64,000 bases of DNA from NCBI GenBank assembly GCA_025453495.1, contig JALOQM010000004.1, positions 28,990 to 92,989 of the forward strand, written 5' to 3'. How positions within the stretch are numbered: the stretch's first letter is position 1; each line of letters opens with the position of its first letter. Source of the stretch: Minisyncoccota bacterium. Its GTDB lineage: Bacteria; Patescibacteriota; Minisyncoccia; Phycocordibacterales; UBA9973. Both the position numbers and the translations under genes were made by a program. Positions 4,093-64,000 of the stretch are shown in pieces. Under the pieces are notes generated by a model. That model worked only from the letters and a program-made list of their open reading frames with translations, did not search any database and was not told the origin of the DNA.

Positions 4093-4249
4093 CGAACTAT
4101 TTTTTTGTTTACTTTTTTGTTTCTTCGTAAATTCCGATTAAAAATTAGCATGAGTATATACTTTTGTCAATATACCGCGATATGAAGATCTAATGCAAAA
4201 AACCAAGGTGTACCCTTGGTTTTTTGCATTATTTTGTATTCCTTAACTA

Positions 4250-12896: not shown

Positions 12897-12903
12897 TTTC
12901 TAT

Positions 12904-12943
12904 CCCACCAAAAAATCCCGCAGCTGCGGGATTTTTTGGTGGG
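12904..12943. terminator. Bidirectional terminator; 40 nt perfect palindrome
   Basis: cccaccaaaaaatcccgcagctgcgggattttttggtggg is a perfect palindrome with A-run and T-run flanks. It sits between convergent genes 12572-12856 (+) and 12948-13520 (-). Confidence 0.6.
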
Positions 12944-12947
12944 ATAA

Positions 12948-17930: not shown

Positions 17931-18369
17931 TGGTAATGGTATGAAAAATTATTTTTAATAGAGTGCACTAACGACCTTCACAAAAAATATAAGTGGGAAA
18001 GTTTGTGAAAAAATTTTTTAATGCATCTTCTGAAATAATTATCTCGCAAGAAAAAACTAAATACAATATTTTTTTTACAAAACTGTGGATAACTTTTTTA
18101 TTTTAGTAATGTGAATCATGAAAAAAAATTATTTACAAAAATATTTTTCATTTTCAAAAAAATAGTACCTATGCATTTTTATTTTTTACTTTTTGAAAAT
18201 TAAAAAACACTCGCGGAAATTTCCACGAATGTTTTTTAATTCATCTGCACTGTGAGCCGCAAGTGCGAGCTCCAACACAAATGCCTATGTGAGTGCAGTC
18301 GCGGCTCACAGTAGAGACGACTGCGCATACAGTGTAGCAAATAGCTATAAAATGTAAAAGATAGTCTAT

Positions 18370-19164: not shown

Positions 19165-19590
19165 GTTTTGAGCCAGATAGTTGCTCTTTGATGTATATCA
19201 AAGAGAGGAAAGTCCGAACACATAACGATTCAATTCGTATAGGTAATGGGTAATTCCCATACGGAGCAATCCGCGAGGTGCGAGCAGAGACGCTTGCAAG
19301 CGAAAGTGCGCAAGCGTCCCGACTTCGGTCGGGACGAGTTCTCAAGGTAACTTGAGAGGTGAAACGGCTAAATCCTTACCCGTGTGCAAGGCCGTGTTCC
19401 CCACTACTTTAAACAGTTATATGAATACTCTATGTAGTAATGAAATAAAAATTATCGCATACGCATACTCACATAAGTTTTTAAAGTAGTGGGGAAAGTG
19501 CCGCTTGAGGCCGACGGCAACGTCGGTCCCAGATAAATGACTATCGTCTGGGTAACCAGATACAGAATTCGGCTTATAGGCTCAAAACTA
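19165..19590 (+). ncRNA. rnpB: RNase P RNA (bacterial type A-like)
   Basis: Universally conserved GGAAAGTCCGAACAC near the 5' end and ACAGAATTCGGCTTATAG near the 3' end. P1 pairing gttttgagcc (19165-19174) with ggctcaaaac (19579-19588). Contains an AT-rich extended hairpin insertion (ccccactacttta...taaagtagtgggg, about 19377-19500). Terminator hairpin at 19596-19626. Confidence 0.85.
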
Positions 19591-19595
19591 ACATG

Positions 19596-22124: not shown

Positions 22125-22141
22125 TCACTATTTGCTTTACT

Positions 22142-22168
22142 AAAACGCACCCAGTAGGGTGCGTTTTA
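22142..22168 (+). terminator. Rho-independent terminator
   Basis: aaaacgcacccagtagggtgcgtttt seen directly. Confidence 0.6.
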
Positions 22169-22566
22169 GTATTCTTTAACCTAACTAACTCCTTTCGTCG
22201 TTTTTTCTAGGATTGTCTTATTATGTACTGAGTTTTTCTTTTCGCCTCCCGCTTTTTCTTGCATGCGGAGTCTGCCTAATAACTATCCTGCATGTTCAGC
22301 TGTAAAGCGAAATATACTCTTTTTGTAATTAATTACTTGTTACAGTTAGAGGCAGACAAGTCCTCGCAGCGAAGAAAGCGGAAATGCGTGAGTAATTCAT
22401 GCAAAAGCCAGAACCCTACCACTATGCACACTGCGCAAGCGAGTAGCGAGCCGTAGTAATTTTTCAGCAGAAAAATACGCGTGTGCATAGTGGTAGGGTT
22501 AAAACAAGAACACGGTATATTCAATAACTACTACATAGAAAACGATCATGAGAGTCACACGACTAT

Positions 22567-22610
22567 GTACAGATAAAAAGCACCCGAGCAGGTGCTTTTT
22601 ATCTGTACAT
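22567..22610. terminator. Bidirectional terminator, 19-bp-stem palindrome immediately 3' of nrdJ
   Basis: tgtacagataaaaagcacc-cgagca-ggtgctttttatctgtaca seen directly. Confidence 0.55.
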
Positions 22611-24960: not shown

Positions 24961-25068
24961 AAAAAAATTTTCAAGTGCCTAGTGTGAAAAATAAAACATA
25001 ATACAAAAAAGTGCTTGTAAACTATTTCTCAAGTCAAGACCTTTTTTCTCTAGAAAAAATGAATTTTT

Positions 25069-29481: not shown

Positions 29482-29966
29482 AAATACGCTTTATTGTAGC
29501 GTTTTTAGATAAAAGCTGATACTTGACTTTTAGTTATAAATACGACATAAAGTGGACGTAGCACATCATAATAAAATATCACCCTTCAAATATAACTCTA
29601 ATGAGACACCTCCTGATACTCCTGCTCATCTTCTCTGCAACAACCGCGTTCGCACAGAACCAGAAAACCATGCGCGTTGAAGAAGAAGCCTTCGTTATCA
29701 AAGAAATCCGGATCGCAACGAGTTGCTGAGATACCGCAACTGCGGTGACGAACGAACTTTGGTACAACGGCAACCAGCTCAACCTTTCCACCCGTTTCCA
29801 GTCCTACCCTGCACACGCTATCGCAGTAAGCAAAATGCAGTTCGTGATTATCGACGGTGTCCGTGAACTTGAAGTGACATGCACTGATCCGCTCGGCACG
29901 CACGTATTCTACTTTCTGAAACAAAACGTTGCGTACTTGCGGATAGGCTGAAAATCAATTTGAAGG

Positions 29967-29998
29967 AAAAGTCCCGCTCACCGAGCGGGACTTTTTCA
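29967..29998. terminator. Bidirectional terminator hairpin
   Basis: aaaagtcccgctcaccgagcgggacttttt seen directly. Lies about 115 nt 3' of rnc (minus strand). Confidence 0.55.
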
Positions 29999-30113
29999 TT
30001 TTCACTTAGTGAGCGAGAATGTGTTTTTGAAAAGCCTTGCAGAGCGCCTGGTGCGAGCAGAGAATTTTTCAACAGAAAAATATTATGCTTTTCAAAAACA
30101 TATTGAGTAGCTC

Positions 30114-30809
30114 TTAATCAAGCCACCCCTTCTTCAGAAGCGCCTCGCGTGCCGCTTCCTGTTCCGCTTCCTGTTTGCTCTTCCCTTTTCCTTCTGCAAT
30201 CATATCAAGGCCGAAATAGATACCGATTTTGAAATGTTTATCATGATCAGGACCAGTTTCAGCAAGTACTTTGTATGATGGTGTGACTCCTACGTATTCT
30301 TGCGCTTTTTCTTGCACGAGACTTTTTGCATCACGATAGAGTTTCTTGGCGACAATCTCGTCAAGCTTACCAAAGAGCGCGCGAGCGATGAAATTCTCGG
30401 CGACAGAATAGCCTTGATCGAGATATACCGCGCCGACAAATGCCTCAAAAGTATTGGCAAGGATATACTGACGCGCCTTGCCACCATCTTTTGATTCACC
30501 TTTTGAGAGAAGCAAGTACTCATTCATACCAAGCGTGTCTGCTGATTCGGCAAGGGTGATTGCATTGACGAGTGCGCTTCGGTATGCGGTAAGCTCACCC
30601 TCATTGTGCTCTGGATAGCGATTATAGAGATAGCGTGTGACGACAAGCTCAAGCACCGCATCACCGAGAAATTCAAGTCGCTCATTGTGCGCGAGACCTG
30701 ACTTCGGATTTTCATTGATATAGGAACGATGGATAAATGCTTGCGTAAGCAATTTTTTGTCAGAAAACATGACACCAACCTTTTTTTCAAATTGTGAGAA
30801 ATCTATCAT
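30114..30809 (-). CDS. rnc: Ribonuclease III
   Basis: First true ATG at 30807-30809 (the ORF-track start is a TTG). RNase III signature ERLEFLGDAVLELVV, C-terminal dsRBD. Confidence 0.9.
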   Translation of the reverse strand: MIDFSQFEKKVGVMFSDKKLLTQAFIHRSYINENPKSGLAHNERLEFLGDAVLELVVTRYLYNRYPEHNEGELTAYRSALVNAITLAESADTLGMNEYLLLSKGESKDGGKARQYILANTFEAFVGAVYLDQGYSVAENFIARALFGKLDEIVAKKLYRDAKSLVQEKAQEYVGVTPSYKVLAETGPDHDKHFKIGIYFGLDMIAEGKGKSKQEAEQEAAREALLKKGWLD

Positions 30810-30897: not shown

Positions 30898-31806
30898 TTA
30901 GTTGCCTTTTGCAAGAAGCGCTACACCTTTGGTAATGACTGGCAACATATCGTCGTACATTTTAAGCTCGGTGATATCGGCGAGTTTAAACCAGTGTGCA
31001 TCATCGAGTCCTCCTGAATCATCAAGGGTTAACTCACCATATTTCGCTTCGGCAAGGAAGAAAGATACTTTTTTCAGAGTTTTGCCTTTCTCTGGATGAG
31101 ATGCGACATATTCGTTGCCACCGAGCTTGTCTTTGACTTCTACAGTAAGACCAATCTCTTGCTTAACTTTACGGATCACGCCAGCTTCTTCCTCTTCTCC
31201 TTCCTCGAGCTTACCTTTGGAAAGGGTCCAACGACCAAAGACATCATGCACAAGAGCAAGGAGTATTTCTCCATTCTTATAAGCATAGACAACAGCGCCG
31301 ACAAGCGTCTCAACAGGAAGTTTTGAGATATCGACAGGCTCAGCTGTCTTTTTCTTTTTGCTTACTTCTTCTTTGCCAGGCTCGCCAAGTTCTTTGTAGA
31401 CAGCACCAAGTACACCATTGACGAATTTGCCTGAATTTTCTCCACCAAATGTCTTTGCAAGCTCAATAGCTTCGTTAATAGCAACCTTTGGTGGTACTTC
31501 AGTTCTGTTACCAAAAAGAAGCTCAGCAAGTCCAAGACGTAAGATATTGCGATCTACAGAAGAGATTTTATCAATCGGCCAGTCAGGAGCGGCTTTTTCT
31601 ATAACGTCATCGATAATCTTGCCTTTTTTGACGACGAGATCAATGAGACCTTGCATAAAAGCTTGATCATCAAGACCAGGGCCGAATTCTTTTATATTGC
31701 GAGCAAGGATTGCCGCCACCTCTTCAGAGGACGCTTTTTTGTTATTAAAATCCCACTCAAAGAGCGTCTGTAAAACAATTGACCGTGAGAGGTGTCTGTT
31801 TGCCAT
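30898..31806 (-). CDS. nusB: NusB (transcription antitermination factor) fused to a C-terminal NUDIX hydrolase domain
   Basis: 302 aa single ORF. Residues about 1-140 carry NusB blocks (RSIVLQTLFEWDF; AINEAIELAKTFGGENSGKFVNGVLGAV). Residues about 170-302 carry a Nudix box GKLEEGEEEEAGVIRKVKQEIGL (G-x5-E-x7-R-E-x2-E-x-G). Confidence 0.75.
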   Translation of the reverse strand: MANRHLSRSIVLQTLFEWDFNNKKASSEEVAAILARNIKEFGPGLDDQAFMQGLIDLVVKKGKIIDDVIEKAAPDWPIDKISSVDRNILRLGLAELLFGNRTEVPPKVAINEAIELAKTFGGENSGKFVNGVLGAVYKELGEPGKEEVSKKKKTAEPVDISKLPVETLVGAVVYAYKNGEILLALVHDVFGRWTLSKGKLEEGEEEEAGVIRKVKQEIGLTVEVKDKLGGNEYVASHPEKGKTLKKVSFFLAEAKYGELTLDDSGGLDDAHWFKLADITELKMYDDMLPVITKGVALLAKGN

Positions 31807-42440: not shown

Positions 42441-42528
42441 ATACTTTATCCTTTCCTTATTTTCCTCTTGCTATACATATTCCAACATTCGAACGAATGT
42501 TGGAATATGTATTTTGCAACAACGCTAT

Positions 42529-43126: not shown

Positions 43127-43179
43127 CCACCTCCCACAAAAAACCACCCGAACGGGTGGTTTTTTGTGACACAGTAGTC

Positions 43180-57129: not shown

Positions 57130-57207
57130 AAATAAAGGTAAGTATTGTCACCACTATAGCAGTTTGTGGTGATACTGCAAAGTAAAGGATAAAAAAGATT
57201 GGTAAAT

Positions 57208-57247
57208 AAAAAAGCATCGTGTGGTGTTGCAACGATGCTTTTTTATT
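57208..57247. terminator. Bidirectional terminator hairpin
   Basis: aaaaaagcatcgtgtggtgttgcaacgatgctttttt seen directly. Confidence 0.55.
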
Positions 57248-57266
57248 TGCAGTTGAATAAAGAGCA

Positions 57267-63434: not shown

Positions 63435-63531
63435 TAAAACTAGAGTCTAGTGTCTAGGGGACTAGAGTTTAGTAACATACAAATACGTATAGATTTTTTA
63501 CTATACCCTAGACACTAACCACTACACTTTC

Positions 63532-64000
63532 ATGACATACGATCTCATCATTATCGGCGGCGGACCTGCAGGTATTTCTGGAACTGTATATGCTGCCCGA
63601 AAACGCCTAAAAACACTTCTGATTACTCCGGATTTTGGTGGACAATCTATCGTCTCACCAGATATAAAAAACTGGATCGGGCATACTTCGATAAGCGGCG
63701 CTGCACTTGCAGAATCACTCAAACAGCACGCTGAAGAATACAAAGGTGAGTTCCTCAATATTGTCGAAGGTGAAAAAGTTGTCACTATAGAAAAAAGCGA
63801 AAATGATTTCACTGTAAAAACCGATGCTAGTACAGTATATCAAGCAAAAACAATCCTTATCGCTTCAGGAAGTGGCAGAAGGAAACTCGATATTCCAGGT
63901 GCTGATGTATTTGAACACAAAGGACTAACCTATTGTGCGTCGTGTGACGGCCCACTCTTTGCCGACAAAGATGTAGTGGTTATTGGTGGCGGAAATGCAG
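63532..64000 (+). CDS. trxB: Thioredoxin-disulfide reductase (3'-truncated by the window end)
   Basis: ATG at 63532. [11 protein letters not shown] motif, redox-active CASCDG, second GGGNA motif at the window edge. Confidence 0.9.

Follow-up and report, generated by a model that had tools for sequence, protein, structure and literature searches.

Two intergenic hairpins, here termed E1 and E2, in a 64,000-nt stretch of DNA from a Minisyncoccota bacterium (contig JALOQM010000004.1, positions 28,990 to 92,989; hereafter the window) are members of a previously uncatalogued, widespread family of elements. The element is multi-copy and non-syntenic, its presence differs between close relatives, it occurs in essentially one phylum, Patescibacteria, also called the candidate phyla radiation (CPR), and its fold is under selection on one strand. 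We think it probable that E1 and E2 are old, partly eroded copies of a dispersed, strand-specific, selfish Patescibacteria element, the folded single strand of which is recognized by a protein. The behaviour of the element is that of a dispersed multi-copy repeat and not that of a single-locus riboregulator acting on nrdJ or rnc, the genes next to E1 and E2, respectively.

E1 is a perfect 20-bp inverted repeat (22412–22431 with 22481–22500) with 49 nt between its arms; the original prediction had its location, perfect pairing and spacer right and its arms, given as 18 bp, too short. E2 has the same architecture, as had been claimed: 18-bp arms (30018–30035 and 30087–30104) with one mismatch, separated by 51 nt. 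The mismatch is G–T on the + strand, giving a G·U pair in a + strand RNA. A near-identical 20-mer lies at the end of the E1 spacer (AATTTTTCAGCAGAAAAATA, 22458–22477) and in E2 (AATTTTTCAACAGAAAAATA, 30063–30082); allowing up to three mismatches, a degenerate form of this 20-mer matches twice in 64 kb against 0.04 expected, and none of 100 shuffles gave two or more. On the + strand, folding compared with shuffles gives z-scores of −8.8 (E1) and −4.1 (E2). The two stems do differ completely in sequence: the arms of E1 and E2 are mutually unrelated, and neither recurs in the window at three or fewer mismatches. A covariance model built from the copies, run filter-free over the 64 kb, recovers both hairpins (E2, 50.8 bits, E = 4.2e-13; E1, 45.0 bits, E = 2.5e-11) and nothing else, the next best match scoring 16.5 bits. 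No further copy is present in ~14 kb of extra sequence of the same organism, giving two copies in ~78 kb. The short pattern TTTTTC-N4-GAAAAA occurs four times in the window against one expected; the site at 25043–25058, taken earlier for a third related copy, exists but scores 7.9 bits against the family model (E = 8.5), which is chance.

Further copies, which the original prediction had suggested seeking in related genomes, are present in large numbers. An exact-pattern scan with AATTTTTCANCAGAAAAATA over one genome per species returned at least 120 loci, ~104 of which share the whole flanking core, the other 16 being bare chance matches in unrelated organisms. Among the matches listed, all true copies but one come from metagenome-assembled genomes (MAGs) labelled as CPR groups (Paceibacterota, Saccharibacteria, Nomura-, Kaiser-, Yonath-, Taylor-, Vogel-, Wildermuth-, Lloyd- and Zambryskiibacteria, Minisyncoccia) or plain 'bacterium', the exception (L213) being labelled Gammaproteobacteria; several MAGs among these matches yield 2–7 loci each. 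Two to four copies are held by 17 of the 99 loci of at most 8 kb, and density varies from ~3 copies in 920 kb of nrdJ relatives to 3–4 per 3–8 kb in other MAGs, one MAG having 3–4 copies on contigs of 1.6–3 kb. In viral contigs, an 18-mer search found 108 stretches; all of them lack flanking arms and no model score exceeds 28 bits, so that they are attributable to chance, and the E1 arm had no match; a consensus copy was likewise unmatched in phage and plasmid collections. Only one of 78 nrdJ loci of relatives with enough downstream sequence carries a copy downstream of nrdJ (L257), in the same place and orientation as E1, and orthology between the two was dropped as too sporadic. Short contigs of MAG JBAXIZ01 (L122, 3.0 kb; L223, 1.6 kb; L219, 3.5 kb) carry one to four copies each, and copy-rich Patescibacteria genomes are probably broken by the element when assembled from short reads.

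The fold was derived by hand parsing followed by a covariance model. A plain MAFFT alignment with RNAalifold reveals only one helix, P3, and the other helices were seen after the hand parse and model-based alignment; single-sequence folding gives the whole architecture again. A full copy is a hairpin of 100–170 nt on the motif strand, composed, from base to tip, of an outer helix, a GA-rich internal loop in some copies, a stem (P1) of 17–38 bp in such a full copy, and a conserved three-way-junction cap. The 49–51-nt loop of the original prediction is thus conserved as claimed but is no plain loop, being a junction with two further helices. P1 is 8–54 bp long, free in sequence and nearly perfect, with 1223 Watson–Crick pairs against 56 others in copies with a P1 score of at least 9. 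Its 5' arm is followed by one U and then by helix alpha, which has 3 bp, mostly UGC/GCA, and covaries to AGC/GCU, UUC/GAA, CGC/GCG, UAC/GUA and UGU/ACA. Past alpha lies an internal loop with G(N)A on its 5' side and an almost invariant GA on its 3' side, and then P2, 4 bp of free sequence closed by a GNNG-type loop such as GACG. A joiner of 2–3 nt connects this side arm to P3, GG-AAUUUUUC-AGCA-GAAAAAU-(bulged A)-UCC, or in general form an A/U-rich stem of 8–10 bp with an A-G/N-C-A tetraloop (AGCA in the form given) and one bulged A on the 3' side; the strand then passes through GU, commonly with a bulged purine after it, into the 3' arm of P1.

Some copies carry a second motif 17–18 bp below the junction, before the outer helix. 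Its 5' strand is GUCGA(G) and its 3' strand (C)GAGUAAGA or GAGAAAGA, with positions peaking at −54 and +24 relative to the 20-mer; among 73 copies, 15 have the 5' strand at these positions, 13 the 3' strand and 8 both. Judged by its sequence, this motif may form a tandem-GA or loop-E-like internal loop. As side observations on the cap, three relatives (L188, L216 and L217, e.g. L217 6539–6629, −) have a second AAUUUUUC-ACCA-GAAAAAUA hairpin in place of P2, and the L217 P3 loop, UGGU, is complementary to ACCA, which hints at a possible loop–loop contact. Four others (L126, L141, L224 and L225) combine a GGGUA-type P2 loop with an ACCA P3 loop, a pattern that is inconsistent across the family.

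Mapped onto this plan, the parts of E1 and E2 are as follows (window positions, all on the + strand).

22412–22431, +: E1 P1 5' arm, AACCCTACCACTATGCACAC, in a perfect 20-bp inverted repeat with 22481–22500
22432–22457, +: E1 eroded junction side arm, aligned by the covariance model (whole element 45.0 bits, E = 2.5e-11) with several non-standard pairs
22432–22434, +: E1 helix alpha 5' strand, UGC (model alignment)
22435–22447, +: E1 degenerate P2, GCAAGCGAGUAGC (model alignment)
22448–22449, +: E1 conserved GA (model alignment)
22450–22452, +: E1 helix alpha 3' strand, GCC, followed by the joiner GUAGU (model alignment)
22458–22477, +: E1 P3 mini-hairpin, AAUUUUUC-AGCA-GAAAAAUA, the conserved 20-mer (pattern search, folding and model alignment)
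22481–22500, +: E1 P1 3' arm (inverted-repeat scan)
30011–30014, +: E2 outer helix 5' strand, GAGC, paired with GCUC in the single-sequence fold
30015–30017, +: E2 basal internal loop 5' side, GAG, a loop motif that sits at a fixed distance from the junction in a subset of relatives
30018–30035, +: E2 P1 5' arm, AATGTGTTTTTGAAAAGC (inverted-repeat scan)
30036–30062, +: E2 junction side arm (model alignment, whole element 50.8 bits, E = 4.2e-13)
30038–30040, +: E2 helix alpha 5' strand, UGC, followed by the loop 5' side AGA (model alignment)
30044–30054, +: E2 P2, GCGC-CUG-GUGC (model alignment)
30055–30059, +: E2 GA (30055–30056) and helix alpha 3' strand GCA (30057–30059), followed by the joiner GAG (model alignment)
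30063–30082, +: E2 P3 mini-hairpin, AAUUUUUC-AACA-GAAAAAUA (pattern search and model alignment)
30087–30104, +: E2 P1 3' arm, with one G·U pair on the + strand (inverted-repeat scan)
30105–30109, +: E2 basal loop 3' side, GAGUA (sequence and fold)
30110–30113, +: E2 outer helix 3' strand, GCUC, abutting the rnc stop codon (30114–30116)

E2 is nearly complete against the family plan, with outer helix, basal loop, P1, alpha, AGA/GA loop and P2 all present. In E1, P1, the 20-mer and the GA persist and alpha is mostly kept; a single pair is broken in each of alpha and P2, the 5' internal loop is deleted, part of P2 is lost and no basal motif is clear, so that the side arm complete in E2 is degenerate in E1. 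Both keep the P3 hairpin, with its GG/CC base eroded in both and its bulge moved to the 5' side in E1, and both join a long free-sequence P1 (20 bp in E1, 18 bp in E2) to a significant model score. The loss of the P3 base in E2 and of the internal loop and part of P2 in E1 marks the two as older, decaying members of the family. Both lie between convergent gene ends. E1 is indeed beyond the nrdJ terminator (22565–22610), where both copies had been placed with respect to their genes; E2, instead, abuts the rnc stop codon with the end of its outer helix (30113), and a terminator-like hairpin (29965–29997) lies on its far side. As low-copy relics, E1 and E2 at most add a stable hairpin to the 3' regions of nrdJ and rnc, and they should not be read as regulators of these genes.

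The claim that the hairpins represent a selected structure and not a chance palindrome holds, borne out by the many relatives, the covariance-model matches and plentiful compensatory changes in every helix. Its stated grounds need amending: two unrelated stems do not by themselves amount to covariation, and the evidence for a selected fold comes from the ~120 relatives. In 20 seed sequences, alpha and P2 are 98–100% paired, with two-sided changes at every pair. In a large alignment of 126 model hits from 100 loci, 90.8% of cells are paired against 67.5% in shuffles, two-sided changes occur at 25 of the 26 model pairs, and the covariation score of 0.528 compares with 0.148 in shuffles (0 of 500 reach the observed value) and with 0.04–0.09 when the 3' partners are slid by 1–3 columns; a point that tells against these figures is that seeds had to be paired to pass the parser and that the large alignment was made by fitting to the model, so that both lean towards structure, although the controls remain far lower. 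Independent support comes from ~20 further copies without the exact 20-mer by which the loci were fished: their P3 stems are compensated (UUUUUU/AAAAAA, UUCGCC/GGUGAA, AAAUCU/AGAUUU, UUUUCC/GGAAAA), and the loop stays AGCA, with rare AGUA, AGAA, ACCA and AACA. A copy from a GC-rich relative reads GCGUUC-AGUA-GAACGC.

Non-canonical pairs identify the folding strand. G·U exceeds A·C by 80:34 in the model helices (p = 2e-5) and by 30:9 in long P1 stems, which indicates that the motif strand is the one that folds. G·T is the most tolerated mismatch in DNA, and the excess therefore cannot separate RNA from single-stranded DNA (ssDNA); the evidence fits a folded single strand of either kind, read from the motif strand.

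Turning to genomic context, the copies are intergenic and occupy all four arrangements of neighbouring genes (tandem, 25 and 22; convergent, 16; divergent, 13). There is no orientation bias with respect to the neighbouring genes, which leaves a cis-regulatory role unsupported, and no bias with respect to GC skew (57:43), which does the same for a replication-linked role. An all-against-all comparison of 505 neighbouring open reading frames (ORFs) revealed no recurrent protein family. Of 11 adjacent pairs of copies, nine are inverted and six divergent. Paralogues within a single MAG (L196/L197, L156/L173 and L192/L119) have inner hairpins 94–99% identical over 79–109 nt, with no DNA or protein similarity between their flanks. 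Multiple copies, unrelated flanks and variable density are the properties of a dispersed repeat. The possibility that the stems act as guides was rejected, as the arms match only their own partners in the window and in ~1.8 Mb of loci.

Some copies are linked to tRNA genes. Sixteen copies are within 350 nt of a tRNA gene, and every one of them is on the strand of that gene. When the tRNA lies upstream, its 3' end (T) comes first, followed by a small terminator-like hairpin; an inverted T then forms the 5' arm and, beyond the core, a direct T forms the 3' arm. Direct copies of T reach 18–19 nt (L140, L134, L217) and inverted ones 21 nt (L258), and the combination of a direct repeat with an inverted copy of the target is present at L140, L134, L217, L258 and L259. 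With arms that are inverted and direct copies of T, the stem amounts to the neighbouring tRNA's acceptor/T-stem minihelix, in which the junction stands in for the T loop. L258 (5746–6010) and L259 (7681–8120, −) are from near-identical strains, with flanks 100% and 97.8% identical, and differ by one ~181-nt unit. The extra unit in L259, between tRNA-Leu and the first unit, has the same tRNA layout and a divergent core: a terminator hairpin, an inverted tRNA 3' end, a structured core in which the AGCA hairpin is missing, and a direct tRNA 3' end. The present model may thus detect only part of the family. E1, E2 and the other non-tRNA copies have neither a third copy of the arm nor direct repeats.

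We propose that the element would spread as a non-autonomous selfish unit, and that its folded single strand would be what a protein recognizes by way of the invariant cap. The AGCA loop, the bulged A and the tandem-GA arm could serve as points of recognition, the stem needing only to pair. The active strand would most probably be a transcript, with ssDNA arising from replication, transformation or transposition as a possible alternative. RNA is the likelier active form because of the RNA-typical motifs, the drift among paralogues through G·U intermediates and the phylum-wide compensation; the repeats at tRNA ends make ssDNA a serious rival.

Several observations weigh against this proposal. 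No transposase, integrase or reverse transcriptase is encoded among the neighbouring ORFs, flanking direct repeats in 43 copies are at the shuffled expectation and so show no target-site duplication (a few of 5–6 nt are the GAG...GAG loop motif), and no terminal sequence is common to all copies, so that mobility follows from distribution and not from mechanism. Beyond the part shared by paralogues, the outer stem is locus-specific yet almost perfectly paired, which is not obviously predicted by either a cut-and-paste unit or RNA drift. Either an insertion or a deletion between direct repeats could account for the L258/L259 difference. A consensus scan found no sigma-70-like promoter near E1 or E2, and E2, which begins 14 nt past the strong + strand terminator at 29965–29997 and ends at the convergent rnc stop codon, leaves no room for a motif-strand promoter of its own, which counts against RNA.

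An unlikely alternative is that the copies are genes of a small-RNA family forming an RNA–protein particle and not selfish, in which a Patescibacteria-specific protein binds the cap, the stem holds copy-specific information or is an RNase III substrate, and copies arise by ordinary duplication. The phylum-wide fold with its RNA-typical tandem GA, GNNG loop and bulged A would suit such a family, as would the AGUA/GA-type basal loop at a fixed 17–18 bp from the junction, the tolerance of G·U on one strand only, the drift of one paralogue arm through G·U intermediates with the other arm fixed (L119 versus L192), and the divergence of 6 of 11 adjacent pairs, which fits promoters between them. However, copy density runs from 2 in ~78 kb or ~3 in 920 kb up to 3–4 per 3–8 kb, positions are not syntenic, E1 and E2 are both eroded and E2 lacks promoter room, and the arms match nothing else in the loci searched, nor does the E1 arm in viral contigs.

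Rather less plausible, in our estimate, is that the active form is ssDNA, the hairpin being a structure-recognized substrate for recombination or transposition like attC, CTX attP(+) or REP/REPIN, with the cap positioning the enzyme. The tRNA-linked layout is the topology that would be left by a folded hairpin att integrating into a tRNA gene, and such integration would explain why all 16 tRNA-near copies are on the tRNA strand despite the intervening terminator. Tandem units at one tRNA-Leu differ in number between two strains, and strand-specific tolerance of G·T is also expected of folded ssDNA. Against this, no recombinase gene (among the neighbouring ORFs) or Xer/att-like consensus is associated with the copies, orientation bias relative to GC skew or replication direction is absent, non-tRNA copies including E1 and E2 lack a third arm copy or direct repeats, and the stem varies between copies, so that one enzyme–site pair cannot explain targeting. 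Also in its favour, Saccharibacteria, a Patescibacteria lineage, are described as naturally competent and so as taking up ssDNA (PMC10187176).

The locus-specific stems, the tRNA linkage and the L258/L259 difference could, going by the sequences, reflect either hairpin-att integration or outward extension of the stem by intrastrand template switching (quasipalindrome correction). Taken further, the stem would be written from local DNA at the time of copying, and the family would be either a mobile element inserting by a mechanism not yet described, one that copies adjacent sequence in inverted form, or a programmable RNA addressing a target such as a tRNA 3' end; we regard this as improbable. 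If it were true, inverted copying might run, for example, through folded ssDNA taken up by naturally competent cells, and the tRNA-minihelix copies make this a concrete, testable mechanism. Group I introns of Patescibacteria tRNA genes (PMC13011429) were considered for the tRNA-linked copies and rejected, the element being too small and the Rfam intron model giving no match.

Very improbable, and already disfavoured, is that E1 and E2 are ordinary gene-end hairpins (bidirectional terminators or mRNA stabilizers) or a duplex operator or DNA-uptake sequence TTTTTC-N4-GAAAAA that happen to share the 20-mer: both window copies do lie between convergent gene ends, long perfect terminator palindromes are numerous in the genome and the 16-mer core is nearly palindromic, but the E1 and E2 stems are not GC-rich and no T run follows them, relatives occupy all four gene-orientation contexts including divergent promoter regions, the mini-hairpin stem covaries with its loop kept, which indicates folding and not duplex sequence recognition, two per 78 kb is far below uptake-sequence density, and the isolated site at 25043 is at chance level. 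Intrinsic terminators have a short GC-rich stem, a 3–8-nt loop and then a T run. A terminator scan calls neither E1 nor E2, with their 49–51-nt loops, as a whole; it finds 22138–22171, 29965–29997 and, on the − strand, 30128–30105, which touches only the outer 3' edge of E2.

Compared with known systems, the element differs from REP/REPIN, MITE-type and attC/CTX attP elements in keeping the apex and freeing the stem. It resembles the REP/BIME and REPIN sequences of Proteobacteria, which are mobilized by RAYT transposases, hairpin-cutting enzymes of the Y1/HUH type, in being intergenic, multi-copy, hairpin-forming, non-coding, non-autonomous and conserved by structure, and in its frequent adjacent inverted pairs (here the 9 of 11 noted above). 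REPs are imperfect palindromes of 20–40 nt with a 5' GTAG, conserved in sequence within a genome and differing between species, whereas here a ~60-nt apical three-way junction is conserved across a phylum and the stem is free. No GTAG-type conserved terminus appears in the family alignments, and no RAYT gene among the neighbouring ORFs, whole genomes not having been searched.

Miniature inverted-repeat transposable elements (MITEs) and related repeats (ERIC, Correia/CREE, RUP/BOX, Rickettsia RPE, Bacillus bcr1, Nezha) share a length of ~100–170 nt, hairpin potential, intergenic dispersal, subfamilies inside single genomes and presence/absence variation. Conserved terminal inverted repeats and target-site duplications are what define a MITE, and this identity was rejected: in the ~1.8 Mb of loci the outer arms match only their own partners, the E1 and E2 arms are unrelated, and no duplications beyond chance were found. 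Integron attC and CTX-phage attP(+) sites are alike in conserving structure over sequence and in strand-specific folding, and the tRNA-linked copies share with hairpin att sites a direct target repeat with a spaced inverted copy. attC sites are conserved at the base of the stem, the present element at its apex. An attC identity was also rejected, since R''/R' (RYYYAAC/GTTRRRY) boxes and dif-like sites are absent from E1 and E2, the copies have neither cassette ORFs nor an intI or xer gene nearby, and the neighbours are unrelated housekeeping genes in all orientations. CMfinder-type orphan RNA motifs and SINE-like RNA-derived repeats are similar in having a multi-stem fold backed by covariation in one lineage; unlike most cis-regulatory motifs, the element is multi-copy and non-syntenic. 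The hammerhead, domain IV of the signal recognition particle RNA, box C/D, the canonical K-turn and T-box stem I were considered as folds and rejected, because their junction lengths or signature sequences do not match and the Rfam scans return none of them.

A check against Rfam, also suggested earlier, shows no such family in Rfam 15 (4227 families): at gathering thresholds there is no match at E1, E2 or the loci of 15 relatives, and with E-values up to 10 the only models to appear are generic ones for microRNA or leader hairpins, which score far below threshold. Full-text literature searching, incomplete in coverage and hence giving absence of evidence only, found no description of the element. 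Patescibacteria make up a large share of bacterial diversity and have tiny, tightly packed genomes, in which a multi-copy non-coding element of 100–170 nt is conspicuous; in Rfam and the literature searched, we found neither an interspersed repeat nor a lineage-specific structured RNA of this kind described for them. The covariance model could be used to annotate a recurrent cause of assembly breaks (contigs of 1.6–3 kb packed with copies), as a marker of strain-level variation, and as a lead to a protein partner or mobility mechanism in organisms reliant on DNA uptake.

The window itself carries a class A RNase P RNA, five tRNA genes and a NusB–NUDIX fusion at ~43% G+C, features with which the Patescibacteria origin of the element's relatives is consistent. 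The same DNA is present, identical, on one JGI metagenome contig and in one Logan assembly. The genes flanking the hairpins have the Pfam domains expected of class II ribonucleotide reductase (nrdJ) and RNase III (rnc); look-up of the 781-aa nrdJ ORF returned no record, probably because its start is called differently. Between the terminator of a gene with fn3 repeats (22138–22171) and E1 lie ~240 nt of non-coding DNA (22172–22411) with no Rfam or family-model match, including a small hairpin directly 5' of E1 (22385–22403) with a GAGUAA motif at 22390–22395.

Other repeats in the window were recorded as minor observations. An imperfect 19-nt inverted repeat (84%; 63441–63459 with 63506–63524, 46-nt spacer) just 5' of an ORF starting near 63534 has a geometry like that of E1 and E2, but no family core and no model match. 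The 5' side of the RNase P RNA gene is very AT-rich (18140–18320), with overlapping palindromes at 18144–18241 and a GC-richer 26-nt inverted repeat (81%; 18241–18266 with 18295–18320) that contains GCGAGC and has no family-model match. Within the RNase P RNA (19165–19592, +; 148.8 bits), a 31-nt inverted repeat, 87% complementary (19397–19427 with 19466–19496), resembles an unusually long inserted or extended helix. At 30898–31806 (−), a single 302-aa ORF encodes NusB fused to a NUDIX hydrolase domain, as indicated by Pfam matches on the identical JGI gene. Long perfect hairpin palindromes with arms of 16–23 bp and loops of 0–11 nt are numerous (12901–12946, 42473–42512, 22565–22610, 4191–4231, 57204–57248 and 43135–43168), which shows that a long perfect stem is no rarity in this genome, even where the conserved cap is lacking. 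The majority resemble extended bidirectional terminators (A run, stem, T run), and the one at 42473–42512 is a near-perfect 40-bp palindrome without a T run.

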